A DNA stretch of 17,604 nucleotides, taken from IMG/VR virus record IMGVR_UViG_3300021400_000219, positions 121,970-139,573 of that record; one strand, 5' to 3'. The notes beneath the pieces are model-generated. The model was given only the letters and a program-made list of their open reading frames with translations, was not told the DNA's origin and searched no databases. The position numbers and the translations under genes were made by a program. This DNA comes from a virus. Shown here one piece after another: positions 1,622 to 17,076 of the stretch (position 1 is its first letter; each line of letters begins with the position of its first letter).

Positions 1622-1713
1622 GGGGTTTTTGAAAAAAATTTAATGGAATTTTCTGGAAGTTGCGCCCGGGCGCGTTAGCCTAAGCTAACTCCCAGATAAA
1701 GGGAAAGCGGGGA

Positions 1714-2082
1714 TTACTCCCCGCTAACCGCCTTGAAATAGGTGGTGCGCTTCTCCTGCACCTTCTCCACAGTGCCAGCCTCAACCATCTGCCGAAGCAG
1801 AGCCGAAGCCCACTGGGAGGACTTGCCAAAGTTGGCACCCACATCCTTAGCCTGCCGCAGGAGGTTGGGGTCCTCCATCAGGAAATCCAGAATCTGGACC
1901 TTGAACCCCTCGTTCTCCAGCTGCTTCTTGGAAGGCTTGCGCTCACCCTTGGAGCTGTTGCGCTTCTGGTAAGAAGCCTTGCAAGCCTCCAGCTTCTCCA
2001 CAACCTCAGCATCGAAGTTGTTGCGGGACAGGAAGTCAATGGCGGAAGTCAGAGCGTCCACATAAGTCATCTTGGTAGCCAT
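1714..2082 (-). CDS. winged-helix-like small DNA-binding protein, paralog family 1 (subtype a)
   Basis: 122-aa ORF; ATG 2082 after AAAGGA SD. The C-terminus ...SSQWASALLRQMVEAGTVEKVQEKRTTYFKA looks like a recognition helix plus wing. Paralogous to 7440..7805, 4399..4761 and 9645..10019. Confidence 0.9.
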   Translation of the reverse strand: MATKMTYVDALTSAIDFLSRNNFDAEVVEKLEACKASYQKRNSSKGERKPSKKQLENEGFKVQILDFLMEDPNLLRQAKDVGANFGKSSQWASALLRQMVEAGTVEKVQEKRTTYFKAVSGE

Positions 2083-2132
2083 AGTATCAATCCTTTCTGG
2101 TTTGGGAGGTTTTCCTTCCTCTTTATGTATTT

Positions 2133-2161
2133 ATTGTATCACAGGTTTGAGGGTTTGTCAA
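2133..2161 (-). promoter_or_regulatory. sigma-A/70-type promoter (gene-proximal of a tandem pair)
   Basis: Minus TTGACA-N17-TACAAT (TGA-extended), with an A/T-rich UP-like tract upstream; serves 1714..2082. Confidence 0.75.
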
Positions 2162-2232
2162 GACCTTTTTTTGATTTTTTTGAAAATCTTTTTTCGGCCT
2201 TGGCCGTTGTCCCTCTCCCTTGGAACAATTAT

Positions 2233-2261
2233 AGTATAGCAGAAGGGGGGCCAAAAGTCAA
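2233..2261 (-). promoter_or_regulatory. sigma-A/70-type promoter, class B (GGTTACA repeats upstream)
   Basis: Minus TTGACT-N17-TATACT (TGC-extended); GGTTACAATTTGGTTACA at 2282-2299; distal partner of 2133-2161. Confidence 0.65.
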
Positions 2262-2321
2262 TTACAAAGTAGAAACAAAATGGTTACAATTTGGTTACAG
2301 GCGCCCGGGCGGAAAACTGCA

Positions 2322-2597
2322 TCAAGCGTGATGCAATTTTCCATCAACGACATAAGTTATACTTTCAAGGCCATCATACTCATCAATTTCCCAGTCGGTA
2401 CAGTTGTCAGGAAGGTCTACCATCACAAGGTTTGCGGTGTAGCCAGAAATATCTTTAGAACCATACTCGTGCATTAACATGATTAAACGCTCATCAGTGC
2501 GTTCAATCATGGCGTAAGGATGTTTCAGACCCAGCTTGTTACAAGCCATAGGAGAAAGAGAAAAACCACCATAGCATTTATTCAACACAATCTTCAT
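2322..2597 (-). CDS. hypothetical protein (91 aa)
   Basis: ORF track; ATG 2597 after AAGGAGG SD. The stop lies inside the hairpin TTGCATCA-N4-TGATGCAA. Confidence 0.85.
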   Translation of the reverse strand: MKIVLNKCYGGFSLSPMACNKLGLKHPYAMIERTDERLIMLMHEYGSKDISGYTANLVMVDLPDNCTDWEIDEYDGLESITYVVDGKLHHA

Positions 2598-2628
2598 TTG
2601 AAGTTACCTCCTTCGTTTCTGTAATTAT

Positions 2629-2657
2629 AATATACCACAGTATTCGCTAATAGTCAA
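2629..2657 (-). promoter_or_regulatory. sigma-A/70-type promoter, class B
   Basis: Minus TTGACT-N17-TATATT (TGG-extended); GTTACATTTTGGTTACA at 2658-2674. Confidence 0.65.
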
Positions 2658-2698
2658 GTTACATTTTGGTTACAGAAATGCCCGGGCGCTTCACTGCG

Positions 2699-2839
2699 CT
2701 AAAGCAGTGAAGAACGCCATTTTATTTTCCAGCAATACCAAAACTTAAAAATATTATACGGTTTTACCCCCATCAAATACGCCCCCTTTTTATGCACTTT
2801 ATACGCATCAAAAAACTTTCTTTCAATAATCTTTCTCAT
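2699..2839 (-). CDS. small basic, aromatic-rich protein (46 aa)
   Basis: Below the ORF-track cut-off. ATG 2839 lies 4 nt after the exonuclease stop, with AAGGGGG SD. Sequence MRKIIERKFFDAYKVHKKGAYLMGVKPYNIFKFWYCWKIKWRSSLL. The stop is in the loop of CTTCACTGC/GCAGTGAAG. Confidence 0.55.
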   Translation of the reverse strand: MRKIIERKFFDAYKVHKKGAYLMGVKPYNIFKFWYCWKIKWRSSLL

Positions 2840-2843
2840 TTAT

Positions 2844-3536
2844 TTATTCCCCCTTTAGAGCCTTTCTATAAACCTGAACTTTACGCCAGCAATTATAAGA
2901 AATAGAATCATCAAAATCAAGGCCAGATTTAATAATTTTCATGTAAATCTGTCTTTCAATGTCCACATCTTCAAGCCCTGTATGTTCTTCAATAAAATCA
3001 GTATTATTAGTGATAAATCTATACGCAATTTCTGCGCTAGTTTGTACGTTGCCACAATCAGAAATAAATCCGTTGCGTTCTGCATAGTTAATAAAAGCGG
3101 GGGTTTTCAAAATAGAACTGCAAGCCATGTTCCAGATGCAAAAATATTCAGTATTATAAGGGAAAAACCAGCGGATAAAAGAACAAGTGATAAAACGTGC
3201 ATCATTATTTGTGGCCCGCTTGTCAAAGCCCATATTATACGCCCCTACTTTATAGGCGTTATACTCTCTCATGTCCGCCCACAAAATACGCCGAATATTT
3301 AACAGCTTTTTCAGGGTTCTTTTACCCTCTTTAATCTGCTCCCAATACTGCGGAATCTTTTCCGCAAAATAAGCGTTCTGCATCATTTCCTTATCAAGGA
3401 AAATTTCAGCCACAACGAAAGAACGCTCGACCAAAATCTCACCAGTGGTATTATCCACAATCTGGTAGCCCACATCATAGGGCAAAGGCTGTTCCACACA
3501 GTTGGCAGTCTCAGTATCAATAATCAGAATATTCAT
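2844..3536 (-). CDS. DEDDh-type 3'-5' exonuclease (DnaQ-like fold)
   Basis: True start is MNILIIDTET at 3536; the upstream part of the 295-aa track ORF reads through the promoter. Motifs: IIDTET (ExoI), YNMGFD (ExoII), HTGLEDVD (ExoIII with His). Confidence 0.85.
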   Translation of the reverse strand: MNILIIDTETANCVEQPLPYDVGYQIVDNTTGEILVERSFVVAEIFLDKEMMQNAYFAEKIPQYWEQIKEGKRTLKKLLNIRRILWADMREYNAYKVGAYNMGFDKRATNNDARFITCSFIRWFFPYNTEYFCIWNMACSSILKTPAFINYAERNGFISDCGNVQTSAEIAYRFITNNTDFIEEHTGLEDVDIERQIYMKIIKSGLDFDDSISYNCWRKVQVYRKALKGE

Positions 3537-3591
3537 AGTATCAATTCCCTTCTTTTTTTTCTTGGGGTTTCTGACCCCCTCAACAATTATT

Positions 3592-3619
3592 ATTATAGCA
3601 GGTTTTTTGAAAATTGCAA
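3592..3619 (-). promoter_or_regulatory. sigma-A/70-type promoter, class C (TTGCACAA operator upstream)
   Basis: Minus TTGCAA-N16-TATAAT (TGC-extended); inverted repeat TTGCACAAAA (3629-3638) / TTTTGTGCAA (3651-3660). Confidence 0.6.
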
Positions 3620-3699
3620 GATGGTAAATTGCACAAAATGCGCAGGTAGTTTTTGTGCAAAATGCCGGGGCGCCCGGGCGGGAGTTAGCCGCAGCTAAC

Positions 3700-3834
3700 T
3701 CACCATGTATGCGTGTCAATGTATTCCACAAAATACCATGCAGGCATACAAAGATAATAAATACCTAACAGAAACAGGGCCGCAATAAGCTTAAAGGGAA
3801 ACAGAATATAATTTTTAATACGCTTTTTATTCAT
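3700..3834 (-). CDS. small single-TM protein (44 aa)
   Basis: Below the track cut-off. AAAGGA SD. Sequence MNKKRIKNYILFPFKLIAALFLLGIYYLCMPAWYFVEYIDTHTW. The stop abuts the GAGTTAGC/GCTAACTC hairpin. Confidence 0.6.
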   Translation of the reverse strand: MNKKRIKNYILFPFKLIAALFLLGIYYLCMPAWYFVEYIDTHTW

Positions 3835-3878
3835 TTTTATTTATCCTTTCTTTTGGAATAATAGGGGGCTTGCGCCCC

Positions 3879-4229
3879 CTACTTTCTTTTTTGCGTCAAT
3901 GTCAACTCAAACTTCTTTCCGTCAACCTCAAAAGCAATAACTCTTTCCTTGTTAGTGATTTCAAGGTTATCAACGGAGTTAGTCAGAAAGTTAGCAATTT
4001 CCGCAATCAAATGGCCTTTGGTTTCGTTGGGTTTTCTTTCCCTTTTGGTGAATTTGTAAGCCGTAGGCTTTCTGTCTGCCTGCCTTGCTTTCTTTTCCAC
4101 CTTTTTCTGTTCAGCCGTCAAGGGGAACGGGTCTGCGCCCTTGTCGATTTCTTTATCAGTGGCAATGATTTCCATCGCTTCCTGTTCAGAAATATCAAGG
4201 ACTTTCATCAGTCTTTCCTTTTGGTTCAT
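3879..4229 (-). CDS. hypothetical basic protein, paralog family 2
   Basis: True start MNQKERL at 4229 (AGGAAGGGG SD). 116 aa, paralogous to 9262..9615 over its full length (shared ...QADRK..AYKF.K.ERK.N..K...). Confidence 0.85.
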   Translation of the reverse strand: MNQKERLMKVLDISEQEAMEIIATDKEIDKGADPFPLTAEQKKVEKKARQADRKPTAYKFTKRERKPNETKGHLIAEIANFLTNSVDNLEITNKERVIAFEVDGKKFELTLTQKRK

Positions 4230-4282: not shown

Positions 4283-4361
4283 GATAAATTTGTTCGTCAA
4301 TTTGCACAAAAGTGGTTAGTATAGGCTAACCGCACCCGGGAGAGTTAGTGTGCGCTAACTT

Positions 4362-4392
4362 CCAGAAAAAGGAAAAGGCCCCACATGGGGCC
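4362..4392 (-). terminator. intrinsic terminator
   Basis: Minus GGCCCCA-TG-TGGGGCC (4377-4392) followed by TTTTCCTTTTTC; just 3' of CDS 4399..4761. Confidence 0.65.
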
Positions 4393-4398
4393 TAATCC

Positions 4399-4761
4399 TC
4401 AAATGTCCATGGCCTTGAAGTAGGTGACACGCTTGTCAACATACTTGTCAACCATGCCGTTGAGATACAGGGTGCGGAGCAGACCGCTCACCCGCTGGCT
4501 GGTAGCATCTGCCAGCTCAGGCACCCCAGCGCAAATCTCAGAGATGCGGAAACCCTTGTCCGAATCATCCCGCAGGAAATCCAGAATCTTGGAGCGAATG
4601 GCATCGTTTTCCACCTGCTTGGCGGAAGGCTTGCGCTCAGCCGTGGACTTCTTGGCAAAGCCCTCGGCAATCTTTTCCAGCTTCTCCCGCAGGGCAGTTT
4701 CCTCAGCAGGGACGAAAGTCAGGGCCATCTCAATAGCAGTCTTATTAGTCAGCTTAGTCAT
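4399..4761 (-). CDS. winged-helix-like small DNA-binding protein, paralog family 1 (subtype b)
   Basis: True start MTKLTNK at 4761; the track ORF extends through the promoter. The C-terminus GFRISEICAGVPELADATSQRVSGLLRTLYLNGMVDKYVDKRVTYFKAM is nearly identical to that of 9645..10019. Confidence 0.9.
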   Translation of the reverse strand: MTKLTNKTAIEMALTFVPAEETALREKLEKIAEGFAKKSTAERKPSAKQVENDAIRSKILDFLRDDSDKGFRISEICAGVPELADATSQRVSGLLRTLYLNGMVDKYVDKRVTYFKAMDI

Positions 4762-4988: not shown

Positions 4989-5037
4989 GATGGGATTTTG
5001 CACAAATTAGATTAACTTCTTTTGGTTAAAATGTCAA

Positions 5038-5066
5038 TAGACAAGCGCATGTTTTTGTGATAAAAT
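5038..5066 (+). promoter_or_regulatory. plus-strand promoter facing a GC-rich island
   Basis: TAGACA-N17-TAAAAT (TGA-extended) followed by TAGTGGGGGG. Its -35 overlaps a minus-sense TTGACA (GTCAATAGACA, 5033-5043). Confidence 0.5.
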
Positions 5067-5072
5067 TAGTGG

Positions 5073-5150
5073 GGGGTCTGCGCGCGGCGGCACCGGCCGT
5101 TATCGGGACGCGCGTGTGTGTGCGTGTGTCGCTTTAAAGAGCTAAAGCGC
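5073..5150 (+). ncRNA. candidate small RNA / GC-rich island, copy C
   Basis: Starts downstream of promoter 5038-5066. Sequence GGGGGTCTGCGCGCGGCGGCACCGGCCGTTATCGGG...GCTTTAAAGAGCTAAAGCG, homologous to 14045-14135 and 16951-17045. Contains a 22-nt alternating purine-pyrimidine run at 5108-5129. The 3' end is unknown. Confidence 0.3.
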
Positions 5151-5170
5151 CCGGGAGAGTTAGCGAGGGC

Positions 5171-5458
5171 TTACCCCTCGCTCGTATCTACTCCCAGAAT
5201 AATCAACAGACTACAGATAGTGCCCCACGCATGGACGCCCATGTCCTCAGGGATTGCATCCCACACATCAGGATACAGACGGCGCACACCAGAGAGAAGC
5301 ATCCCGCCCCAGTTACCACCGCAAGCGGTACACAAGTCAAGGAAATCTTTAAAACTCATTTTAGTTTTCTGCGCCATGCACGCATAGACAACAACTTCAT
5401 CGCCCCACTCGTTCCGCACAGTATCAAGGGCTTCCATGAAATCAGAATGAAGAATCAT
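5171..5458 (-). CDS. hypothetical protein (95 aa)
   Basis: ATG 5458 overlaps the upstream stop as ATGA. Begins MILHSDFMEALDTVRNEW...; the stop is in the loop of AGCGAGGG/CCCTCGCT. Confidence 0.85.
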   Translation of the reverse strand: MILHSDFMEALDTVRNEWGDEVVVYACMAQKTKMSFKDFLDLCTACGGNWGGMLLSGVRRLYPDVWDAIPEDMGVHAWGTICSLLIILGVDTSEG

Positions 5459-5660: not shown

Positions 5661-5716
5661 TACTTTTGGACAAAAAAGTTTAAGGAAATATTTTCCAGGG
5701 CCCGGGCACTTGGAAA

Positions 5717-5995
5717 TTACTCCCAAGTCCCTTCCAGATAAAGCTGGATAATTCTAGTAGCCATTTTCTTGGGCTCCAGCATAGTCACGTCATCCTCATC
5801 CCAAGGGAACTGATAGGATTCAACCATTCCCTTGTCACTCCCATAGGTACCAGCATGACAAGCAACATCACCTTCATGCCAAGGGAAACGCAACTGCATC
5901 CCTTCAAAAATAGGATTAACAGTGAAAGGAACGCTTGCAAAAGTCAGGCAGGCAATCACAGCATTAATAGCATCAGTATACTTGTTAGTGAACAT
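5717..5995 (-). CDS. hypothetical protein (92 aa)
   Basis: True start MFTNKYT at 5995 after AAAGGAGGAAC SD; the stop is in a GUAA-type hairpin loop (5708-5728). Confidence 0.85.
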   Translation of the reverse strand: MFTNKYTDAINAVIACLTFASVPFTVNPIFEGMQLRFPWHEGDVACHAGTYGSDKGMVESYQFPWDEDDVTMLEPKKMATRIIQLYLEGTWE

Positions 5996-6054: not shown

Positions 6055-6115
6055 TAGGTTTTTCAAAAAAATTTAATGGAATTTTTTTCCAGTTACCCGG
6101 GCGTGTGCTGGAAAT

Positions 6116-6295
6116 TTATTCCAGCACTTCCACCTCTTCCCAATCCCAAAACTCTTCATTAGGATTCCAGAATGTGGCAAAATCATCACATTCATCAATG
6201 GCAGAAACTCCCAGTTTACAGCGTCCATCCTTTTCCCAGTAGGGACAATCCCAGCCGTTGACAGTGCAGTAAATAACCATTCTTTTTTCTTTCAT
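6116..6295 (-). CDS. small acidic Cys-containing protein (59 aa)
   Basis: Missed by the track (59 aa). ATG 6295 overlaps the stop of 6292..6504 as ATGA. Sequence MKEKRMVIYCTVNGWDCPYWEKDGRCKLGVSAIDECDDFATFWNPNEEFWDWEEVEVLE. The stop is in the GTGCTGGAA/TTCCAGCAC hairpin. Confidence 0.7.
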   Translation of the reverse strand: MKEKRMVIYCTVNGWDCPYWEKDGRCKLGVSAIDECDDFATFWNPNEEFWDWEEVEVLE

Positions 6296-6582: not shown

Positions 6583-6647
6583 TACTAAATTGAAAAAAAT
6601 TTGATGGAATTTTTGGAAATGTTTTCCAGTGCCCGGGTGATGGTGAC

Positions 6648-6827
6648 TTAGTCACCATCCCTTTCTTCAAATTCACATACAGGACAAATAAAATCTCTAA
6701 AGTCTTCCTCTTCCCAATCAGATTCATAGATAGGCTCGCCGCACTCGGGACAATTATAAAATCGTTCATCCCAATTTACGAAACCGCCGAATACATTTTC
6801 AACAATCTTTGCATTCAGTTCCCACAT
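6648..6827 (-). CDS. small acidic zinc-ribbon protein (59 aa)
   Basis: True start MWELNAK at 6827 after AAGGAGG. CPEC...CPVC gives two CxxC pairs. The stop is in the loop of GATGGTGAC/GTCACCATC. Confidence 0.8.
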   Translation of the reverse strand: MWELNAKIVENVFGGFVNWDERFYNCPECGEPIYESDWEEEDFRDFICPVCEFEERDGD

Positions 6828-6974: not shown

Positions 6975-7002
6975 AGTATACCACAAATTATCCAAAAGTC
7001 AA
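6975..7002 (-). promoter_or_regulatory. sigma-A/70-type promoter, class B
   Basis: Minus TTGACT-N16-TATACT (TGG-extended); GTTACAATTTGGTTACA at 7003-7019. Confidence 0.65.
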
Positions 7003-7041
7003 GTTACAATTTGGTTACAAACACCCGGGCGCGAAGGTGAC

Positions 7042-7281
7042 TTAGTCACCCTCATTCGTCTTCATTGGAAACAGGTCGTCCAGATTGGTAACACCTGGAA
7101 TAAATTCAGTAATAAAAGAAAAAGGTCTTGCTTCTGCCAATTCTACGTTGTCAATGTCCCACACATCATCAAAGGCTTCTTCGCACGGCGGGCGTAATCC
7201 CTTCCAAAATTTGGTTTCTGCTTCCTCTGCGGTTTCCGCTTCAATCATGCAATAACCAGAAAAATCAATGTACCATTTCAT
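7042..7281 (-). CDS. small strongly acidic protein (79 aa)
   Basis: ORF track; AAAGGAG SD. 19 D/E versus 6 K/R by count. The stop is in the GGTGAC-TTA-GTCACC hairpin. Confidence 0.85.
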   Translation of the reverse strand: MKWYIDFSGYCMIEAETAEEAETKFWKGLRPPCEEAFDDVWDIDNVELAEARPFSFITEFIPGVTNLDDLFPMKTNEGD

Positions 7282-7350: not shown

Positions 7351-7439
7351 TAGAAAATTGAAAAAAATTTAATGGAATTTATTCCCATTTACCCGGGCGC
7401 GTTAGCTGCTGCTAACTCTGGAAGAAAAAGGAAGGGGGA

Positions 7440-7805
7440 TTACTCCCCCTTCACCTGGAAGCGGCTGACCCGCTTCTCCACAACCTTCTCCACGGTTCCA
7501 GCTTCTACCAGCTGGCGCAGAAGGGCGGAAGCCTGCTGGCTGGAAGAGAGTTCCAGTTCGGCGGCTACTTCCTTCGCCTGCATAGGCTCGTGGTCAGTCA
7601 GCAGTTCAACGATGCGGGCCTTGATACCCTCGTTTTCAATCTGCTTCTTGGTGGGCTTGCGCTCGCCCTTGGACTTGGAAGCGTTCCGCTTCTCATAGCT
7701 GGCCTTGCAAGCAACCAGCTTTTCCATGGCTTCCTCGTTGAAGTCAGCGGGCAGGGAAGCAATAGCCATTTCCAGAGCCTTCACATAAGTCATCTTGTTA
7801 GTCAT
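7440..7805 (-). CDS. winged-helix-like small DNA-binding protein, paralog family 1 (subtype a)
   Basis: True start MTNKMTYVKAL at 7805. Collinear with 1714..2082 (EKLxACKASYxKRN..KGERKP.KKQ.ENEG..., ...ASALLRQ.VEAGTVEKV.EKR). The stop is in the GUAA loop of AAGGGGGA/TCCCCCTT. Confidence 0.9.
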   Translation of the reverse strand: MTNKMTYVKALEMAIASLPADFNEEAMEKLVACKASYEKRNASKSKGERKPTKKQIENEGIKARIVELLTDHEPMQAKEVAAELELSSSQQASALLRQLVEAGTVEKVVEKRVSRFQVKGE

Positions 7806-8047: not shown

Positions 8048-8117
8048 GGGTTTTTTCAAAAGTTTTTTCTGGAATTTCTACCAAGATTTTCCAGCGACCC
8101 GGGCGAGTTAGCGGGGG

Positions 8118-8495
8118 TTAACCCCGCTTGTACTCTTTAGTGCCCATAGAGTAAGGAATGTTGTACATCTCACAAGCTTCAATGGCGTACCCGATTGCCA
8201 GATTTGCCATTTCCTGGGCTTGCTCATACTTTCTGTTAGGGGTAATCTTGTAAAGAAAATGGTCATTCTGAACCTGTTCAAACAAGTAGGACATTTTCAG
8301 TCGTGCATGAGCTTCGACGGCAAGCCGCTCAGATTTGGTAGCTTTTGGCATTTTAATCCATGCTAAACACTGAAAATGTTCATTCTGTCTGATGCTGGAA
8401 AGACGCTGTGCTGGGGTGTCTTTGCCAGTTTCACCCAGCTTGAAAACACCATTCTTACGGCAGAAATAATTAAAACCAGTATAAAAGCAAGCCAT
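8118..8495 (-). CDS. T5orf172 / GIY-YIG-superfamily-like domain protein (125 aa)
   Basis: ORF track. GVFKLGETGKDTPAQRLSSI plus ERLAVEAHARLK fits the KIG-T...R...L / E..LH pattern of T5orf172 (MUG113) domains as I remember it; not verified by search. Confidence 0.8.
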   Translation of the reverse strand: MACFYTGFNYFCRKNGVFKLGETGKDTPAQRLSSIRQNEHFQCLAWIKMPKATKSERLAVEAHARLKMSYLFEQVQNDHFLYKITPNRKYEQAQEMANLAIGYAIEACEMYNIPYSMGTKEYKRG

Positions 8496-8559: not shown

Positions 8560-8588
8560 AGTATAGCAGATAGGAATGGATTTGTCAA
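8560..8588 (-). promoter_or_regulatory. sigma-A/70-type promoter, class A
   Basis: Minus TTGACA-N17-TATACT (TGC-extended). Confidence 0.75.
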
Positions 8589-8649
8589 TACCTTTTTTCA
8601 AATTTTTTAATGGAATTTTTTTCCAGTTGCCCGGGCGCAGGAGTTAGCA

Positions 8650-8955
8650 TTAGCTAACTCCATTTTCTTCCAGACAAAATTCAAAACTCAAATCTTTTAC
8701 CACTTTTTGGGAAATGTATTCACGCACAAGGAAAAGCTCTAAATCTCTAGCCTGCTCCTCTACATAGCTACGGCGCAAATCGCGCACAGTGGAAAGATTT
8801 ACCATCGGGTATTCCATAGGATAACCACGCGCAACCACAATTACATTGTAAAGATTTTCCACGGGGTTCACCCTCATTCTCTTTTTCTTCTGGAATTTAT
8901 TGGTTTTATTGCGTTCAACTTTCGTTCTAAATTCTTTCATTTTTGCCTTGCTCAT
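8650..8955 (-). CDS. hypothetical protein (101 aa)
   Basis: Start MSKAKMKEF at 8955 overlaps the upstream stop as ATGA. The stop lies in the loop of the GGAGTTAGC-N4-GCTAACTCC hairpin (8640-8661). Confidence 0.8.
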   Translation of the reverse strand: MSKAKMKEFRTKVERNKTNKFQKKKRMRVNPVENLYNVIVVARGYPMEYPMVNLSTVRDLRRSYVEEQARDLELFLVREYISQKVVKDLSFEFCLEENGVS

Positions 8956-9180: not shown

Positions 9181-9261
9181 TACCTTTTTTAGAAAAATTT
9201 ACTGGAAATGTTTTCCAAGTGCCCGGGCGGCGCTTTAGCGCACTGAAGCGCTAAAGCATCC

Positions 9262-9615: not shown

Positions 9616-9644
9616 TTTTATTTACCCCCTTTTTGGGGAGGGGG

Positions 9645-10253: not shown

Positions 10254-10414
10254 TACTGATTTGAAAATTTGGGGGCATTCTCTGTTTTGCACAATTTTGA
10301 TGCAAAAATTGCGTCATTTTTGTGCATTTTGACGGCGCGCCCGGGTGAACTACCAATTTCAGGAAAAGCTGGGGTCAAGAGAGAACAAGGAAATTCATTG
10401 AAAAATTTGGTAAC

Positions 10415-10475
10415 GATTTCCAGCGCGCGACACCGGAACCCCTGGGCCGTGTGCGTGTGCGACGGGTGCACGCAG
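10415..10475. other. GC-rich island, copy D (no clear promoter)
   Basis: CAGCGCGCGACACCGG...CCGTGTGCGTGTGCGACGGGTGCACGC; 14-nt alternating purine-pyrimidine run at 10448-10461. Confidence 0.5.
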
Positions 10476-10644
10476 TATTTATTTATACAAGCGGAACTAA
10501 TAGAAAAATCAATTTAAAATATTTATACATATTTATTTATTATTAAGGGTACCGGCGCAATTCTCAAATCAAAAACCTTCCAGGTCTATTTACTTCTGGA
10601 AAATGAAATAAAAATAGGGGCTGATTTATTTTCAAAAATGAGAT

Positions 10645-11441: not shown

Positions 11442-11460
11442 TTTGTGCAATTTGCACAAA
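11442..11460. promoter_or_regulatory. 19-bp perfect palindrome, operator candidate
   Basis: TTTGTGCAATTTGCACAAA, read directly. Confidence 0.6.
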
Positions 11461-11485
11461 AGCGCCCGGGCGAGTTACCCTGTGC

Positions 11486-11725
11486 TTACAAGGTAACTTT
11501 GCACTGTCTAAAATCATGCCACAGATGGGGCTGAGTCAGCGGAGACCGCAGGGAATAAGCTTGGTATTGCAAGAAAGATAAAATGCGGATTTCTGTTATT
11601 GTAGTTTCATCATCTAAATCAAACTTTTTATTTATTACAGAGCCGTGCAATCTGCCAGGGGTTTTTGCAAAAACTTTAGTAGTAAAACCAAACGGGTCCA
11701 TAATCTTAATCTCATAATAATTCAT
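11486..11725 (-). CDS. hypothetical protein (79 aa)
   Basis: True start MNYYEIKIMDPFG at 11725 after AAAGGAGAA SD. The stop is in the loop of AGTTACC/GGTAACT. Confidence 0.8.
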   Translation of the reverse strand: MNYYEIKIMDPFGFTTKVFAKTPGRLHGSVINKKFDLDDETTITEIRILSFLQYQAYSLRSPLTQPHLWHDFRQCKVTL

Positions 11726-11765
11726 TTTTTTATTCTCCTTTCTTTTGGCGTATTCTTTCGGGGTT

Positions 11766-11927
11766 TTATCCCCGAAAGATAACATTTCCAGAGAGGTTAT
11801 TTACAAGCTTGACAGGCTCGTTTTTAACCATGGCCAGGGTTTCGGCCAGAATCTTAATGGCCCGCAGGTCATTCATAGAGGAAACGGGGGTCTTGCCCAC
11901 GTAGATGGTAAACAGAGTGATATTCAT
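11766..11927 (-). CDS. hypothetical protein (53 aa)
   Basis: True start MNITLFTIYVGK at 11927 after AAGGAGG. The stop is in the loop of CTTTCGGGG/CCCCGAAAG (11755-11778). Confidence 0.7.
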   Translation of the reverse strand: MNITLFTIYVGKTPVSSMNDLRAIKILAETLAMVKNEPVKLVNNLSGNVIFRG

Positions 11928-11988: not shown

Positions 11989-12046
11989 GGGGTTTATGCG
12001 ATTTTTCTTCTGGAATTTTTTGGTTATGGCGCCCGGGTGGCTGGCC

Positions 12047-12490
12047 TTACCCGATATGGGCGGCCAGCCAAGCCAGCATCTTTTTGCTTTCTTTAGCGCA
12101 CCGGATTTTCATCCCGCCGCCGTTCTTCTGGCTTTCCCGCTCGGTCTTGCAGAACTCGGTGCAGAAGGCGGTGAACTCGTCCCGGTTCATCATATAGACC
12201 TGATAATCGGCGGTAACGTAGGCCCAGAGGTTGCTGTGGGTGCGCTCCATATAGAGGGCCCAGATTTCATCATAAGTTTCCCGGCCTTCGCACAGGGTGG
12301 CGCTCATAAGGGTGAAGGCAGAAGCCTTGACGGAGATGAGCATTTCACCAAGCTCGATATCAGAGCCTTTGTCATATGCACCGCTATCATGGGTGGTGCG
12401 GTCGATGCCCATATAGTGGCACAGATCGTGCTCACGGGCAATGCCCTTATTAGTAGCGGGGGAAACGTGGTCAATCTTGAAGGTCTTCAT
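12047..12490 (-). CDS. hypothetical protein (147 aa), noticeably GC-richer than its neighbours
   Basis: True start MKTFKIDHV at 12490 after AAGGAAAGGGAG. GSDIELGEMLISVKAS weakly recalls a PD-(D/E)xK nuclease core; that part is low confidence. Confidence 0.85.
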   Translation of the reverse strand: MKTFKIDHVSPATNKGIAREHDLCHYMGIDRTTHDSGAYDKGSDIELGEMLISVKASAFTLMSATLCEGRETYDEIWALYMERTHSNLWAYVTADYQVYMMNRDEFTAFCTEFCKTERESQKNGGGMKIRCAKESKKMLAWLAAHIG

Positions 12491-12521: not shown

Positions 12522-12550
12522 AGTATAGCACCATTCCCCGGGATAGTCAA
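12522..12550 (-). promoter_or_regulatory. sigma-A/70-type promoter, class C
   Basis: Minus TTGACT-N17-TATACT (TGC-extended); CCCCGGG lies in the spacer. Confidence 0.7.
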
Positions 12551-12727: not shown

Positions 12728-12910
12728 GTTAGCAGTTAGCAAAGGGTAATGCTAGTTAGCACAAGCTAATTGTTGTTAGTTCGAACTAACTCCGGTTAGC
12801 AGGGACTAACTGGAGTTAGCCTAGGCTAACTTTAGCACACTAAAGCTGTAGCGATTTAGCGAACTAAAGTGCGCCGGACCTGGCAATTTGAACAATTAGC
12901 GGCTGCTAAC
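12728..12910. repeat. tandem array of 8 TTAG(C)-loop-(G)CTAA mini-palindromes
   Basis: Hairpins or palindromes at 12737-12754, 12755-12769, 12775-12790 (GTTAGTTCGAACTAAC), 12795-12810, 12814-12831 (AGTTAGCCTAGGCTAACT), 12830-12845, 12855-12868 and 12896-12909. Confidence 0.85.
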
Positions 12911-12913
12911 TTT

Positions 12914-13167
12914 GTGCATTTTGACGAGGTTTCGGGATTCGTCAAGTTGCACAAAAATGTAACCAAATTGTAACCAAAATTTGTGCAATTTGACGGTGGC
13001 GCGAACTCGGCTGCCAACGACTGCGCTGGGCCACAGTGCACTCGTTGGCGGCCGGTTCGTCATTTTGCACAAATGCGTGCGTGCGAGGGGCCTTAACTTT
13101 ATGCATTATGACGAAAAAAAATTTTTGTGCAAAATGACGAATCAAATCCTGATTCGTCAAAATGCAC
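12914..13167. repeat. array of GTGCA-N3-TGACG motifs in nested inverted pairs
   Basis: Forward copies at 12914-12927, 12983-12996, 13101-13114 and 13127-13140. Reverse copies at 12939-12952, 13057-13070 and 13154-13167. Further copies at 4294-4307 and 10322-10335. Confidence 0.8.
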
Positions 13168-13192
13168 AAAAAAAGAGGCATTGCCCGGCCTC
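13166..13192 (-). terminator. intrinsic terminator
   Basis: Minus GAGGC-CGGGCAAT-GCCTC followed by TTTTTTT. Confidence 0.6.
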
Positions 13193-13498: not shown

Positions 13499-13540
13499 GG
13501 GTTTTTTCTTTTTTTTTTTTTGTTCCCGGAGGGCCGGGGC

Positions 13541-13699
13541 TTAGTAGCCCCAGCCGATGGAGGTTACCCTCCATCCCTCCTCCCGCAGTGCGGGATAAAG
13601 GGCGGCGAAACTCGCCAACCCGTGTTCCCACACACGGGACTCACAGGCCCACAGGCCAGTGAAGAGGTTCCGATGGAACCGGATGTATTCAATTTTCAT
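13541..13699 (-). CDS. hypothetical protein (52 aa)
   Basis: True start MKIEYIRFHRNLF at 13699 after AAAGGAGG. The stop is in the GGGGCT-N4-AGCCCC hairpin. Confidence 0.6.
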   Translation of the reverse strand: MKIEYIRFHRNLFTGLWACESRVWEHGLASFAALYPALREEGWRVTSIGWGY

Positions 13700-13729: not shown

Positions 13730-13758
13730 ATTATAGCAGACCCGCCCGGGTTTGTCAA
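13730..13758 (-). promoter_or_regulatory. sigma-A/70-type promoter (gene-proximal tandem)
   Basis: Minus TTGACA-N17-TATAAT (TGC-extended); CCCGGG lies within the spacer. Confidence 0.7.
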
Positions 13759-13924: not shown

Positions 13925-13930
13925 ATGATT

Positions 13931-13959: not shown

Positions 13960-14007
13960 TTGACAAATCTCACAAATCGGGATGTTCTATTTTGTGCATT
14001 TTTACTC

Positions 14008-14037
14008 TTGACAGCCGAGCCTATTTTGTGGTATAAT
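14008..14037 (+). promoter_or_regulatory. plus-strand promoter facing a GC-rich island
   Basis: TTGACA-N18-TATAAT (TGG-extended); the upstream CATTTTTACTCTTGACA is conserved with 16916-16944. Confidence 0.6.
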
Positions 14038-14044
14038 ATTTCTG

Positions 14045-14171
14045 TACTGCCTGCGCGCGCGGTCGCCGGCCGTTAGCGGGGGCTAACTGTGCCTGGGTGT
14101 GCGCCTTTATTGCAATAAAGCACTAAAGTGCACAAGGGCAAAAAACTACGAGGATTTTTTAATCCTCGTAG
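14045..14171 (+). ncRNA. candidate small RNA / GC-rich island, copy A
   Basis: CTGCGCGCGCGGTCGCCGGCCGTTAGCGGGGGCTAAC...GTGTGCGCCTTTATTGCAATAAAG... running into hairpin 14146-14171, which is shared with the convergent minus-strand gene. Confidence 0.3.
14139..14171 (-). terminator. intrinsic terminator containing the stop codon
   Basis: Minus CTACGAGGATT-AAAA-AATCCTCGTAG followed by TTTTTTG; the stop of 14159..14290 lies in the loop. Confidence 0.75.
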
Positions 14172-14290
14172 TCAATGGCGATGACCTTCCAGCCCTTGGG
14201 CGGTTCGTAGTTTTCCGGCAGGCCCTTCCAGAGAATCAATTCAGTATCGGCCCACTCTCCATCAATCTTTCTGATTTCAATGCTCCACAT
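14159..14290 (-). CDS. hypothetical micro-protein (43 aa)
   Basis: True start MWSIEIRKIDGEW at 14290 after AGAAAGGA; the conserved 5'UTR is shared with 1714..2082 and 17067..17294. Confidence 0.6.
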   Translation of the reverse strand: MWSIEIRKIDGEWADTELILWKGLPENYEPPKGWKVIAIDYED

Positions 14291-14342: not shown

Positions 14343-14371
14343 ATTATAGCAGACTCAACCGGGTTTGTCAA
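14343..14371 (-). promoter_or_regulatory. sigma-A/70-type promoter
   Basis: Minus TTGACA-N17-TATAAT (TGC-extended). Confidence 0.75.
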
Positions 14372-14591: not shown

Positions 14592-14609
14592 CCCCTTTTT
14601 TGAAATTTT

Positions 14610-14756
14610 TTAGGGAAATTTATCTCTCCCTAAAAAACAATCCCGCATAAATTCCAACTGTTCCAGAGAAAAGCGGGCCGCAAATTGTGCGGGCGTCTCT
14701 TCAAAGAGATGGTATCCGTTGGCAACCATTTCCATTACAACTTCCAGCTTTTTCAT
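14610..14756 (-). CDS. hypothetical micro-protein (48 aa)
   Basis: True start MKKLEVVMEMVANGY at 14756 after AAAGGAGGAAC. Confidence 0.65.
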   Translation of the reverse strand: MKKLEVVMEMVANGYHLFEETPAQFAARFSLEQLEFMRDCFLGRDKFP

Positions 14757-14951: not shown

Positions 14952-15022
14952 TTACAAAATGGTTACAATTTTATTTCAGAATGGTTACAATTTGCGCCCG
15001 GGCAAATGGGAAAAAGAGGGAA

Positions 15023-15487
15023 TTACTTCCCTCTCGCCCATGTCAGAACGTCCATAATCATTTCAGGATTGAAGGCCCAACCTTCCATTTCTTCCCACTC
15101 AATCACATTGTTTTCTTCATCGTCAAACAGAATCCCATTTTTCACGGTGGGCACTGTGCTTTTGGGCGTCCCATAGGGAACAATGTTGATTTCATCAAAG
15201 TGAACGCTTGCAAGGTGTTTCTTGAGCCAATTCTTTTTGGCTTCAATAACCTTTTCGTCAAATTCCTTGTTGCTATTCTTAGCTAACCAACTAACTACCC
15301 CGATTGTCCATCCCTTTTTCTGAAGGTTATTCAACCGACGGGCAAGGGCGTTCATGTTTACCAGAGGCTTAGCAACTTCATAGGGGAAGGGATTGTTTTC
15401 CAGTAGATAACCCAGCCAGTTTTCTACGCCGTAGAAGTTGGCGATTGTTCCATCCATGTCAAAGTAGATTGCCCGATTGATTTTCAT
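15023..15487 (-). CDS. HAD-superfamily hydrolase, 5'(3')-deoxyribonucleotidase (NT5C)-like, paralog 2
   Basis: 154-aa ORF; AAAGGAG SD; contains YFDMDGTIA. The stop is in the GUAA loop of AGAGGGAA/TTCCCTCT (15015-15034). Confidence 0.9.
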   Translation of the reverse strand: MKINRAIYFDMDGTIANFYGVENWLGYLLENNPFPYEVAKPLVNMNALARRLNNLQKKGWTIGVVSWLAKNSNKEFDEKVIEAKKNWLKKHLASVHFDEINIVPYGTPKSTVPTVKNGILFDDEENNVIEWEEMEGWAFNPEMIMDVLTWARGK

Positions 15488-15619: not shown

Positions 15620-15632
15620 AAAGGGGGAATTA

Positions 15633-15651
15633 TTTTTTTTTTTTTTTTTTT
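15633..15651. repeat. homopolymer T19 (A19 on the gene strand)
   Basis: Counted directly from the sequence. Confidence 0.95.
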
Positions 15652-15652
15652 G

Positions 15653-15688
15653 GTTAGCTTAGGCTAACTTAGGTTAGTATGTGCTAAC
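15653..15688. repeat. two TTAGC-type mini-palindromes
   Basis: GTTAGC-TTAG-GCTAAC (15653-15668) and GTTAG-TATGTG-CTAAC (15673-15688), followed by CCCGGGCG at 15691. Confidence 0.8.
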
Positions 15689-15705
15689 TACCCGGGCGCA
15701 AGAAA

Positions 15706-16026
15706 TCAGCCCTTGGGCTGATTCTCGCAAGCCTTTTTATTATTGTTCAGGGTTTTCATTAAAGACTTGGGGCACTTTTCGCAGTTGTGGCAATTCTTGT
15801 AAATGCTGATTCCCTGACTAACAGTTGCGATAAACATTGTTACCAGATTGTTAGTAGTTGCATTGTATACAATCACAATCCCCTTTTCAGTGAGAACAAC
15901 CTTGCCATCGTTGTTGTCGTAGGTTTCTGCGATTGCAGGCCCAAACTCGCCCTTGCAATAGTCGATGATGTAGGAAATTCTTTCCATCCTCTCAACCTTG
16001 GCGTGATAACTGACTTTCTTTGTCAT
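15706..16026 (-). CDS. hypothetical protein (106 aa)
   Basis: True start MTKKVSYHAK at 16026 after AAAAGGGG (the track uses an upstream TTG). The stop lies in the 3' arm of AATCAGCCC/GGGCTGATT. Confidence 0.85.
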   Translation of the reverse strand: MTKKVSYHAKVERMERISYIIDYCKGEFGPAIAETYDNNDGKVVLTEKGIVIVYNATTNNLVTMFIATVSQGISIYKNCHNCEKCPKSLMKTLNNNKKACENQPKG

Positions 16027-16058
16027 TTTTGACAACCCCTTTTCTTATTTTCTGACTA

Positions 16059-16087
16059 AAGTATAGCACACATTCCCGCAGTTGTCA
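16059..16087 (-). promoter_or_regulatory. sigma-A/70-type promoter, class A (degenerate)
   Basis: Minus TTGACA-N17-TATACT (TGC-extended). Confidence 0.75.
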
Positions 16088-16149
16088 ATACCTTTTTTCA
16101 AATTTTTTCAGATTTTTTTGAACCGGGCGAATGGAAAAAGCTGGAAGTG

Positions 16150-16479
16150 TTACCACTCCCAGCCATCAAACCAACCATCATACCGAACAGAAACAATCTC
16201 ATCGTCATAGATAATGGGGGTATTTCTGTCATACATTACCATTGACACAATGTCACCCACAATCCAGTCACCTTCGCAATCTGTAAAGCACCATTCATTC
16301 CCGTTGAAATCCTTGCAGGTGACAAGTTTGCACTCGTCGTTGATTTCTACTATCACAGTTGTCATTGCATACAGGTTAGCAGTCTTTCCGCTTGCGGCGT
16401 CAGCGTTCACACTTGCGCCGATGCACATACCGCACACCATAACCACCAAAAGAACCATCACACTAATCAGCTTTTTCAT
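16150..16479 (-). CDS. secreted small protein with N-terminal signal peptide (109 aa)
   Basis: ORF track; AAAGGAGGAAAAC SD. MKKLISVMVLLVVMVCGMCIGASVNADAA has n-, h- and c-regions with an A-x-A-like site. The stop is in a GUAA loop. Confidence 0.9.
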   Translation of the reverse strand: MKKLISVMVLLVVMVCGMCIGASVNADAASGKTANLYAMTTVIVEINDECKLVTCKDFNGNEWCFTDCEGDWIVGDIVSMVMYDRNTPIIYDDEIVSVRYDGWFDGWEW

Positions 16480-16509
16480 TTTGTTTTCCTCCTTTGTTTT
16501 ACTGTAATC

Positions 16510-16537
16510 ATTATACCATACTTTTGGAATTTGTCAA
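16510..16537 (-). promoter_or_regulatory. sigma-A/70-type promoter
   Basis: Minus TTGACA-N16-TATAAT (TGG-extended). Confidence 0.7.
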
Positions 16538-16557
16538 GAGGTTTTTTCAAATTTCCC

Positions 16558-16591
16558 GGAAAATCTTTTGAGAGGGTTTCCCCTCTCAAAA
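16558..16591 (-). terminator. stop-codon-containing hairpin / probable terminator
   Basis: Minus TTTTGAGAGGG-GAAA-CCCTCTCAAAA followed by GATTTTCC; 11-bp stem with a GNRA loop. Confidence 0.6.
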
Positions 16592-16807
16592 AATGTTTAC
16601 CATTTCAGGCTTTACCATCTCAACAGGAAGGAAACAACCGCTTTTGCAGTAAACTTCTTGTTTCACGTTTCCATCTTTGATAACCAGACGATACACGCCG
16701 CAGGTTCTTCCAGCCGCTTCCATTTTTGCTTGTTTCCAAGCTTTTCCAAAAGCTGCAGTATCCTCAAACTCAAACCCCGCAACCTGATAAACAAACTTCT
16801 TAGCCAT
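16586..16807 (-). CDS. hypothetical protein (73 aa)
   Basis: ORF track; AAGGAAAGGGG SD. Confidence 0.85.
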   Translation of the reverse strand: MAKKFVYQVAGFEFEDTAAFGKAWKQAKMEAAGRTCGVYRLVIKDGNVKQEVYCKSGCFLPVEMVKPEMVNIF

Positions 16808-16839
16808 TTTAATGACCCCTTTCCTTAATTTCTATATTT

Positions 16840-16868
16840 ATTATAGCATCCTGTAAGCTATTTGTCTA
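16840..16868 (-). promoter_or_regulatory. sigma-A/70-type promoter, class C (divergent)
   Basis: Minus TAGACA-N17-TATAAT (TGC-extended); TTGCACAAAAA at 16877-16887. Confidence 0.6.
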
Positions 16869-16915
16869 TTGGTAAATTGCACAAAAAAGTTTTTGATTTT
16901 TGGGCATTTTTACTC

Positions 16916-16944
16916 TTGACATTCGCTGTAAATTGTGGTAAAAT
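16916..16944 (+). promoter_or_regulatory. plus-strand promoter facing a GC-rich island
   Basis: TTGACA-N17-TAAAAT (TGG-extended) followed by AAAATGGGGAG. Confidence 0.6.
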
Positions 16945-16950
16945 AAAATG

Positions 16951-17076
16951 GGGAGCTGTTGTTCGCGCGCGCCGAAGGCCGTTAGCGGCCGCTAACCGGG
17001 TGTGCGTGTGCGCACCTTTATAGCTTTAATGGGTTAAAGTAACCGGGTAAAAAAGAGAAGGACTTTTCAGTCCTTC
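16951..17076 (+). ncRNA. candidate small RNA / GC-rich island, copy B
   Basis: GGGGAGCTGTTGTTCGCGCGCGCCGAAGGCCGTTAGCGGCCGCTAACCGGGTGTGCGTGTGCGCACCTTTATAGC... Includes the 16-bp palindrome GTTAGCGGCCGCTAAC (16981-16996) and a 16-nt alternating purine-pyrimidine run (17000-17015). Confidence 0.3.
17046..17076 (-). terminator. intrinsic terminator containing the stop codon
   Basis: Minus GAAGGACT-GAAA-AGTCCTTC followed by TCTTTTTTACC; the stop codon (17067-17069) spans the loop and the first base of the 3' arm. Confidence 0.75.

Follow-up and report, generated by a model that had tools for sequence, protein, structure and literature searches.

The closest described counterparts of the locus analyzed here are the PeSLs of T4-type phages, cassettes that combine a sigma-70 promoter with a stem-loop and, by recombining, rearrange small genes of unknown function (Arbiol et al. 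2010, PMC2839356; Comeau et al. 2014, PMC4122927). In PeSLs, an AT-rich stretch, a strong promoter for the host sigma factor and a GC-rich stem-loop are repeated through a hyperplastic early region, and the motif is the site of insertions, deletions and replacements between close relatives. The stem-loop is mostly located between or over the −35 and −10 elements, and the stop codon lies in the AT-rich part. Terminator or attenuator activity of the stem-loop and mini-circles formed between motifs also belong to the PeSL type. A second relevant case is that of the Bacillota, for which intrinsic terminators at stop codons have been connected with runaway transcription (Johnson et al. 2020, as summarized in PMC7858274 and PMC12207403); in Bacillus subtilis, the uncoupling of transcription from translation explains why terminators are found a few nucleotides from stop codons (PMC7858274). 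Here we analyzed a 17,604-nt stretch of viral DNA (positions 121,970 to 139,573 of IMG/VR record IMGVR_UViG_3300021400_000219), below called the window, in which the stop codons of most genes are embedded in hairpins and many of these hairpins are followed by the motif CCCGGG. We consider it probable, with some reserve, that the window is composed of autonomous early cassettes that carry RNA hairpins at their 3′ ends and are shuffled at the hairpin and CCCGGG in a PeSL-like manner.

The window comes from a metagenomic contig of 174 kb (ENA ERZ28612966 scaffold_111). According to our own gene calls it contains 35 genes for proteins of 34 to 230 amino acids, all encoded on the minus strand and all 35 preceded by a strong ribosome-binding site of the AGGAGG type. 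A consensus scan identified 33 minus-strand promoters of the type TTGACA-N16-18-TATAAT with scores of 10 to 12 out of 12 between positions 1593 and 17374 (87 promoter-like sites overall in the same scan of the window versus 32 expected), and AT-rich stretches are present upstream of the −35 elements. The presence of strong minus-strand promoters for the 35 genes indicates about 28 short transcription units.

A hairpin accompanies the stop codon in 27 of the 35 genes. Within these 27 hairpins the stop is located in the loop in 18 cases, at the edge between loop and stem in one, in the 5′ arm in three, in the 3′ arm in three, and 3 to 5 nt upstream of the hairpin in the remaining two. Six of the eight genes without a stop hairpin immediately precede the next gene of an operon; hairpins are thus present at 27 of 29 unit-terminal genes versus none of the six operon-internal genes. 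The gene running off the right edge of the window also has its stop in a hairpin loop. Stops overlapped a hairpin with a stem of at least 6 bp in 26 of 35 cases, compared to 30% of interior codons (p = 9e-8), and touched the loop in 23 of 35 cases, compared to 13% of interior codons (p = 1e-12). The predicted folding energy of 51-nt windows centered on the stop was −16.7 kcal/mol versus −9.1 kcal/mol for interior windows, a difference of 7.6 kcal/mol (Mann-Whitney p = 2e-9). In dinucleotide shuffling, 14 hairpins gave z-scores between −1.8 and −5.6, and 12 of the 14 were at or below −2.8. These results confirm the proposal of the first-pass annotation that stop codons are systematically embedded in 3′ hairpins, for which folding against shuffled controls had been suggested as a check. 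The hairpin positions it gave proved to be correct throughout, including that of the edge gene, and the protein C termini do end in SGE, KGE, KGE, EGD, DGD and SEG as it had described. The hairpins in the window are:

17533 to 17560, minus strand: hairpin of the right-edge run-off gene, TGA 17547-17549 in the loop, T-rich tail.
17057 to 17076, minus strand: hairpin gaaggacTGAAAagtccttc with T-tract, stop of gene 17067-17294.
16563 to 16594, minus strand: 14-bp hairpin with GAAA loop, TGA in the 5′ arm, gene 16586-16807.
16139 to 16164, minus strand: hairpin with the stop in a GTAA loop, T-tract, gene 16150-16479.
15703 to 15724, minus strand: hairpin with TGA in the 3′ arm, CCCGGG 6 nt downstream, gene 15706-16026.
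15014 to 15035, minus strand: hairpin with the stop in a GTAA loop, tail TTTTTCC, gene 15023-15487.
14605 to 14638, minus strand: 14-bp hairpin with TAA in the 3′ arm, gene 14610-14756.
14144 to 14173, minus strand: 13-bp hairpin with T-tract, TAA at the loop, gene 14159-14290.
13532 to 13555, minus strand: hairpin ggctggggctACTAagccccggcc, stop of gene 13541-13699.
13556 to 13575, minus strand: second hairpin gatggaggGTAAcctccatc inside gene 13541-13699, TAA out of frame.
12040 to 12070, minus strand: large-loop hairpin of gene 12047-12490, TAA at the edge of the loop, followed after 2 nt by CCCGGG.
11754 to 11779, minus strand: hairpin with ATAAAA loop, stop of gene 11766-11927.
11473 to 11498, minus strand: hairpin abutting CCCGGG, gene 11486-11725, compensatory change from C-G to G-C in strain L015.
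9638 to 9656, minus strand: hairpin gagggggtTTAaccccctc, stop of gene 9645-10019.
9233 to 9258, minus strand: hairpin 3 nt past the TGA of gene 9262-9615, CCCGGG 5 nt downstream.
8640 to 8661, minus strand: hairpin formed by a TTAGC-N4-GCTAA palindrome, TAA in the loop, gene 8650-8955.
8110 to 8128, minus strand: hairpin agcggggTTAACccccgct, stop of gene 8118-8495.
7431 to 7452, minus strand: hairpin with GTAA loop and T-tract, gene 7440-7805.
7032 to 7054, minus strand: hairpin ggtgacTAAgtcacc abutting CCCGGG, gene 7042-7281.
6639 to 6659, minus strand: hairpin gatggtgacTAAgtcaccatc abutting CCCGGG, gene 6648-6827.
6105 to 6127, minus strand: hairpin with TAAAT loop abutting CCCGGG, gene 6116-6295.
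5708 to 5728, minus strand: hairpin acttgggagTAAtttccaagt abutting CCCGGG, gene 5717-5995, reading frame continuing from the loop in L015.
5162 to 5182, minus strand: hairpin with GTAAG loop, stop of gene 5171-5458.
4376 to 4393, minus strand: terminator-like hairpin with T-tract, 5 nt past the TGA of gene 4399-4761.
3860 to 3883, minus strand: hairpin with GCAA loop, TAG in the 5′ arm, gene 3879-4229.
3682 to 3701, minus strand: hairpin formed by a TTAGC-N4-GCTAA palindrome over the TGA of gene 3700-3834, CCCGGG 3 nt downstream.
2842 to 2856, minus strand: hairpin remnant, 5′ arm gggggaaTAAat at the end of gene 2844-3536, complete with T-tract in L012.
2689 to 2712, minus strand: hairpin with TAG in the loop abutting CCCGGG, gene 2699-2839.
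2310 to 2343, minus strand: 15-bp hairpin with TGA in the 3′ arm directly abutting CCCGGG, gene 2322-2597.
1706 to 1725, minus strand: hairpin agcggggaGTAAtccccgct with T-rich tail, gene 1714-2082.

The hairpins are 19 to 34 nt in size and have mostly perfect stems. A T-rich tail follows five to seven of the 27 (17057, 16139, 7431, 4376 and 1706, more weakly 15014 and 14144). The number of hairpins resembling intrinsic terminators is thus five to seven rather than the four given earlier, with those at 1706, 7431, 16139 and, more weakly, 15014 being added. As the U-tract is absent at most hairpins, the majority are not canonical terminators. Fourteen of the 27 have CCCGGG within 0 to 6 nt downstream and no T-tract. 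GTAA is found in four loops, in addition to one GTAAG loop, and GNRA sequences in seven of about 15 tetraloops. The loops of 40 hairpins with the stop in the loop from related phages are likewise diverse, the commonest being a TAA triloop, and the GNRA loop stressed by the first reading was therefore rejected as a design principle. The hairpins at 8640-8661 and 3682-3701 do overlap stops, but they are copies of a separate conserved palindrome. The GUAA hairpin at 13556-13575 had been considered an orphan in frame with its gene; its TAA is out of frame (...TGG AGG GTA ACC TCC...), and an origin as the relic of a cassette end is possible.

The motif CCCGGG adjoining the hairpins had been overlooked before. 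It occurs in 22 copies in the window versus 3.4 expected, all of them inside the 15-kb cassette region, whereas 17 kb of flanks contain none. On the minus strand, a junction consists of the stop hairpin, an optional TTAGC-N4-GCTAA, (CG)CCCGGG(CG), operator-like repeats and an AT-rich stretch, the promoter, the leader with the ribosome-binding site, and the next gene. Across 59 non-redundant junctions, which were taken from the window, from strain variants of it and from the relative L004, the distance from the hairpin end to CCCGGG (consensus CG-CCCGGG-CG) is 0 to 3 nt, whereas that from CCCGGG to the −35 element is 21 to 52 nt. CCCGGG thus keeps its distance to the hairpin but not to the promoter, and its interpretation as a phased promoter element was rejected. 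The copies, for which no strand is assigned, and two examples of promoter modules are:

1225 to 1230: CCCGGG, junction motif.
1665 to 1670: CCCGGG, junction motif, breakpoint in L012 and L016.
2304 to 2309: CCCGGG, junction motif, breakpoint in L012, L015 and L016.
2681 to 2686: CCCGGG, junction motif, breakpoint in L016.
3673 to 3678: CCCGGG, junction motif.
4335 to 4340: CCCGGG, junction motif.
5150 to 5155: CCCGGG, junction motif.
5701 to 5706: CCCGGG, junction motif, breakpoint in L015.
6096 to 6101: CCCGGG, junction motif.
6632 to 6637: CCCGGG, junction motif.
7024 to 7029: CCCGGG, junction motif, breakpoint in L015 and L016.
7392 to 7397: CCCGGG, junction motif, breakpoint in L016.
8098 to 8103: CCCGGG, junction motif.
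8630 to 8635: CCCGGG, junction motif.
9222 to 9227: CCCGGG, junction motif.
10340 to 10345: CCCGGG bordering a long noncoding stretch.
11465 to 11470: CCCGGG, junction motif.
12032 to 12037: CCCGGG, junction motif.
12537 to 12542: CCCGGG within a promoter spacer (TTGACTATCCCGGGG...TATACT).
13745 to 13750: CCCGGG within a promoter spacer (TTGACAAACCCGGGCGG...TATAAT).
14997 to 15002: CCCGGG, junction motif.
15691 to 15696: CCCGGG, junction motif.
8560 to 8629, minus strand: promoter module with GGAAAA/TTCC repeat, AT-rich upstream stretch and TTGACA-17-TATACT.
6975 to 7023, minus strand: second type of promoter module, TGTAACCAAATTGTAAC followed by TTGACT-16-TATACT.

The operator-like repeats at the junctions are of at least three kinds (TGGAAA..TTTCCA, TGTAACCAAATTGTAAC and TTGTGCAAAATG); candidate operator-like sequences in the window further include CGCCCGGGCG and TGTAAC repeats. 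A second class of promoters carries CCCGG(G) in the spacer right behind the −35 element (TTGACAAACCCGGG..., at 12537-12542 and 13745-13750), with degenerate copies near 14360, 14580, 15535 and 17362. Their −35 element is at the same time the loop of a small GGGTTGACAAACCC hairpin, reminiscent of the PeSL subclass with a stem-loop over the −35 element. Directly 3′ of the −10 element, a conserved leader, TATACTATAATTGTTCCAAGGGAGAGGG, was found at 1593-1575, 2233-2215 and 6554-6536 and near 3690 in L004; being common to several cassettes and this distant relative, it may represent another regulatory site.

Near-identical strains (L012/L014, L015, L016 and L017) carry differing sets of cassettes. 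Homology between the strains most often breaks exactly at CCCGGG. Other breakpoints are located right after TTGACAAAT, at the −35 element, at the −10 element or ribosome-binding site, twice in a hairpin loop, and in some cases inside genes. Whole cassettes reaching from one CCCGGG to the next recur with an unrelated flank on one side, and one promoter module (CCCGGGcgcctgtaacc...) joins four different upstream partners. The gene for the 230-amino-acid protein ends in L012 with the intact hairpin gggggaaTAAatttcccccc followed by a T-tract; in the window its 5′ arm and stop are kept, but an insertion of two cassettes separates the loop from the next CCCGGG. At the 5708 hairpin the border between 5′ arm and loop is a breakpoint, and L015 has a longer, fused open reading frame (ORF). 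The earlier idea that the hairpins are the stem-loop half of a mobile promoter/stem-loop cassette gains support from these whole-cassette differences in L012, L015 and L016, with breakpoints at the CCCGGG after the hairpin.

The strain variants were also informative on the nature of the hairpins. Ten substitutions in stems preserve pairing, one is doubly compensatory and three are disruptive, and the changes in loops (TAA to TGA, or synonymous) keep the stop in the loop. Under a strand-symmetric definition of hairpins, internal positions without a Watson-Crick pair are G.T in 35 cases versus A.C in 10 (p = 2.5e-4). The excess of G.T together with the pair-preserving and compensatory substitutions shows that the stop hairpins are selected as folded single strands of sense polarity. 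Most simply they would act as sense-strand structures in the mRNA.

A pattern scan of IMG/VR identified about 25 further large phage contigs with at least one CCCGGG per kb upstream of promoters. Related contigs contain 151 to 157 distinct CCCGGG-to-promoter junctions; in 76% of 151 a hairpin ends within 8 nt of CCCGGG, and under a strict strand-symmetric definition this value is 51% versus 4.5% at random positions. Of 109 junction hairpins with a clear upstream ORF, 40 had the stop in the loop, 19 had it in an arm and 50 were preceded by it. When the ORF ended upstream, a stop triplet was present in 17 of 50 loops, and a stop built into the hairpin loop as such was rejected. Orthologues of the 230-amino-acid protein gene (in L004, L005, L006, L010 and L012; 54 to 63% identity in the divergent relatives) have their stop in the loop of hairpins that share no common sequence, and the last three to six residues, encoded by the 5′ arm, are lineage-specific. 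The same holds true for four paralogues of about 120 amino acids encoded on the minus strand of the window (1714-2082, 4399-4761, 7440-7805 and 9645-10019), which end in ...YFKA followed by VSGE, VKGE, MDI or MGEGV. A protein-based scan of genome contigs did not find relatives, and a DNA pattern scan of these contigs yielded mostly single chance matches; the design is shared there only by L155, a contig in an Acutalibacteraceae metagenome-assembled genome, and L094. As a separate observation, in the AT-rich relatives L007, L008 and L009 the stop of the exonuclease-like gene near 10685 is a TGA within the −35 element TTGACT of the next promoter, an even tighter overlap of gene and promoter in which the hairpin is absent.

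Taken as cassettes, the about 28 units would each consist of operator-like repeats, an AT-rich stretch, a sigma-A type promoter, a strong ribosome-binding site, one to three small ORFs and a GC-rich hairpin at the end. We infer that the hairpins with a U-tract are intrinsic terminators, whereas the majority, with CCCGGG within 0 to 6 nt, are most likely attenuators or barriers to 3′-exonucleases that stabilize the upstream mRNA after read-through. The read-through RNA would be cut in the AU-rich promoter region and then trimmed back to the stable hairpin, in line with what is generally known of RNase Y and PNPase in Bacillota. The ORF would run through the 5′ arm, adding a short, non-conserved peptide tail, and end in the loop. 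The hairpin would thereby be placed as close to the functional end of the protein as the GC-rich stem permits; as stop triplets are excluded from a GC-rich stem, an ORF that overlaps it deeply finds its stop in the loop. Such an overlap would be tolerated where RNA polymerase outruns the ribosomes, as in Bacillota. The hairpins behave as sense-strand RNA structures that are placed only at the ends of transcription units. They may couple translation termination to 3′-end formation or stability, as the first reading proposed. The hairpin and CCCGGG would form the 3′ boundary of the cassette at which exchange, insertion and deletion take place, with the −35 and −10 elements, the ribosome-binding site and the hairpin loop as lesser points of exchange.

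Several points weigh against this interpretation. A T-rich tail is limited to the minority given above and 14 hairpins precede the GC-rich CCCGGG, so that termination is not predicted for most of them. With 46% of the window being noncoding, compaction is a weak reason for the overlap of ORF and hairpin, and pure compaction as the driver was rejected. In the annotated Enterococcus phage EF1, hairpins near stops are common too, but the stop precedes them or is part of the 5′ arm; of 29 stops associated with a hairpin only four lie in the loop, versus 18 of 26 in the window. As EF1 has such hairpins without a loop bias, the placement in the loop needs a further cause. The G.T asymmetry fits RNA and single-stranded DNA of the sense strand alike. 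Finally, the strict conservation of CCCGGG is not accounted for by passive recombination at short homologies. Its invariance calls for a function, for which a crossover core, a protein-binding site or self-complementary RNA pairing between successive read-through copies are candidates.

The further cause might be that the position of the stop in the loop is itself functional. The terminating ribosome, whose footprint extends about 12 to 15 nt past the stop and hence roughly to CCCGGG, would melt the hairpin, and a hairpin gated by translation in this way would set read-through or expose the 3′ end to exonucleases, serving as a timer of early mRNA. The distance from stop to CCCGGG clusters at 12 to 18 nt in 12 of the 14 abutting cases. 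The loop bias is also strong and clade-specific in the comparison with EF1, is recreated with unrelated hairpin sequences in the orthologues and is retained through the TAA-to-TGA and synonymous changes of the strain variants, and in a region with so much noncoding DNA a saving of 10 nt is no obvious driver. However, with 40 of 109 stops in the loop and 50 upstream in the wider set, the arrangement is not obligatory. The exclusion of stop triplets from GC-rich stems would alone bias overlapping stops to the loop, and no experimental precedent was found in the literature. We regard a function of the loop position as possible but doubtful.

The hairpin and CCCGGG might instead form the attachment site of an enzyme dedicated to recombination or nicking, with folded single-stranded DNA as its substrate, comparable to the variable hairpin and conserved core of integron attC sites. 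CCCGGG does not vary, unlike the sequence on either side of it, one right-hand module is found behind four different left-hand partners with the joint exactly at CCCGGG, and CCCGGG-bounded whole cassettes are the units of mosaicism; the fixed spacing of 0 to 3 nt between hairpin and core and the strand-specific selection of the hairpins would also fit. In attC, too, a short conserved core and a variable hairpin with a strand-specific structure mark the 3′ boundary of the cassette. In contrast, attC sites are 57 to 141 nt long, imperfect, contain R″/L″/L′/R′ boxes and a GTTRRRY core and are recombined by IntI, and integron cassettes are promoterless. The hairpins of the window are short and perfect, lack the extrahelical bases and R/L boxes of attC, and every cassette has its own promoter. 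With the size, boxes and core of attC as well as attI, promoterless cassettes and an adjacent IntI tyrosine recombinase all lacking, the hairpins are not attC sites. Breakpoints are also found at −35 and −10 elements, at ribosome-binding sites and inside genes, as predicted for general short-homology recombination, CCCGGG is also present in promoter spacers (12537 and 13745), and no recombinase is encoded within 10 kb on either side, the part of the genome that was searched. A dedicated enzyme is therefore unlikely. Its broadest form, in which a clade of large TAG-recoded gut phages keeps integron-like but self-expressed cassettes with the hairpin and CCCGGG as a dedicated crossover or cleavage site, and with the stop in the loop so that exchanges leave the ORF intact, is in our view just as improbable.

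Very unlikely is the view that the hairpins are palindromes in duplex DNA bound by dimeric regulators and overlap stops incidentally. It fits one subset: the palindrome TTAGY-N4-RCTAA, which includes the 8640 and 3682 hairpins, occurs in 16 copies versus 0.27 expected, with conserved half-sites, a variable center and arrays spaced exactly 20 bp, and is often located between the terminator hairpin and CCCGGG. This palindrome looks like the operator of a dimeric DNA-binding protein, and the window encodes the four paralogues mentioned above, which have weak winged-helix/MarR-like matches (PHROG E ~1e-3) and are candidate binders of the several operator-like repeat classes. The other 25 hairpins, however, have no common stem sequence, and the pair-preserving and compensatory stem changes as well as the G.T excess over A.C on the sense strand point to a folded single strand. 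Copies of the palindrome, for which no strand is assigned, include:

12756 to 12829: four copies of TTAGY-N4-RCTAA spaced exactly 20 bp, candidate operator array.
15654 to 15687: two copies of TTAGY-N4-RCTAA 20 bp apart, beside CCCGGG.
1675 to 1688: TTAGC-N4-GCTAA between terminator hairpin and CCCGGG.
7402 to 7415: TTAGC-N4-GCTAA between terminator hairpin and CCCGGG.
4316 to 4358: two copies of TTAGY-N4-RCTAA on either side of CCCGGG 4335-4340.
1235 to 1248: TTAGC-N4-GCTAA beside CCCGGG.

That the arrangement has no function and results from chance or deletion bias is hardly credible, since, although deletion of everything between the protein end and the hairpin would leave the stop in the loop, the enrichment statistics argue against chance, a version that is already largely refuted, and the design is kept with unrelated sequences and confined to unit ends.

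Other repeats were found in the window. The motif TTGTGCAWWWTG(ACG) occurs in 10 copies versus 0.09 expected (3653, 4298, 10320, 11443-11459 and 12912-13169), some of which form long inverted repeats in the noncoding stretch 12860-13170; from its sequence this stretch resembles an iteron/origin region or a further class of operators. A family of GC-rich elements of about 100 nt (GCGCGCG..CCGGCCGTTAGCGG..GTGTGCGC..CTTTA-N-TAAAG) is present on the plus strand at 5030-5160, 14000-14145 and 16908-17056, with weaker copies at 1085-1235 and 10395-10500. These elements have their own strong plus-strand promoters (5038, 14008 and 16916) that converge on the 3′ ends of minus-strand genes. They may represent small antisense or noncoding RNAs; comparison with Rfam gave no family match for them. 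T homopolymers of 12 to 28 nt are located on the plus strand at 15621-15650, 17467-17500 and 13506-13520, directly downstream of plus-strand promoters (15591 and 17433).

Few proteins of the window have family matches: a DnaQ-like exonuclease, two HAD-type nucleotidase paralogues and the four winged-helix-like paralogues. Each gene of the latter has two tandem promoters upstream with a leader of about 100 nt between them. A Pfam and PDB sequence search with the cassette proteins was uninformative. A megablast search of the window against a phage collection gave no match, Rfam gave none at the gathering score and only two at E ~0.3-0.4 for the window, and no tRNAs were found in it. The 35 cassette genes end with TAA in 22 cases, TGA in 11 and TAG in two, in agreement with the standard code. 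In the flanks on the same contig outside the window (L018 1-6997 and L013 13794-18383), many genes contain 2 to 13 in-frame TAG codons each and no in-frame TAA or TGA; among them are those for a terminase large subunit, a sigma-like factor, a ScpB/DnaD-like and an NlpC/P60 protein. The in-frame TAG codons indicate that the phage reassigns TAG outside the early region, and the window accordingly represents the early region of a recoded phage, itself using the standard code. The nearest described relatives are the TAG-suppressing phAss-1 group, which the recoded flanks fit (PMC10607447), and 140-kb Enterococcus phages. The host probably belongs to the Clostridia; two contigs binned with Clostridia metagenome-assembled genomes have the same junction design as the window. 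The GC content of the cassette coding sequences is 44% (49% at third positions) versus 33% (23% at third positions) in the flanks, where many of the coding sequences are TAG-recoded. Either adaptation to the codon usage of the host or horizontal acquisition is conceivable for the early genes.

Returning to the interpretation as PeSL-like cassettes, the window shares with PeSLs the repeated host-type promoter with its AT-rich stretch, a stem-loop within the motif, the hyperplastic region of small genes and the breakpoints at the motif. It differs in lineage: PeSLs belong to T4-like phages of Gram-negative hosts, whereas the phage studied here is a TAG-recoded one, probably of Clostridia, whose relatives found are large Enterococcus phages and the phAss-1 group rather than T4-like myoviruses and which has no megablast match in the phage collection to indicate sequence homology to the described PeSLs. 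In addition, the stem-loop, whose sequence varies, precedes the promoter and sits at the stop codon of the gene before it, and the CCCGGG core, the operator palindromes and the stop-in-loop rule have no PeSL counterpart. The early region of Bacillus phage SPO1 is also comparable, as the small early genes of its host-takeover module are reportedly packed densely and individually equipped with a strong sigma-A promoter and ribosome-binding site. As in SPO1 and other Herelleviridae, small early genes are arranged in series and a sigma-like factor is encoded for later genes, but we know of no description of a conserved junction core or a stop-in-loop rule for SPO1, and the comparator EF1 lacks the loop bias. 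Like the terminators of runaway transcription, the hairpins begin at or within a few nucleotides of the stop, and the five to seven with a T-rich tail have proper U-tracts; unlike them, the ORF usually crosses the whole 5′ arm and most hairpins have CCCGGG instead of a U-tract. Our literature search did not yield a description of this junction or of stops placed systematically in loops, and the phAss-1 paper mentions neither promoters nor hairpins.

The results suggest that modular shuffling of early genes via composite promoter/stem-loop junctions is not confined to T4-like phages but also takes place in widespread large, stop-codon-recoded gut phages of Clostridia, with a sharply defined junction of hairpin and CCCGGG. 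The bias of stops toward the loop offers a testable case of how much overlap between an ORF and a 3′ RNA structure is possible with transcription uncoupled from translation. The junction provides a sequence handle to delimit early-gene cassettes, which likely comprise host-takeover or anti-defense genes, in metagenomic phage genomes and to track the exchange of cassettes between strains.

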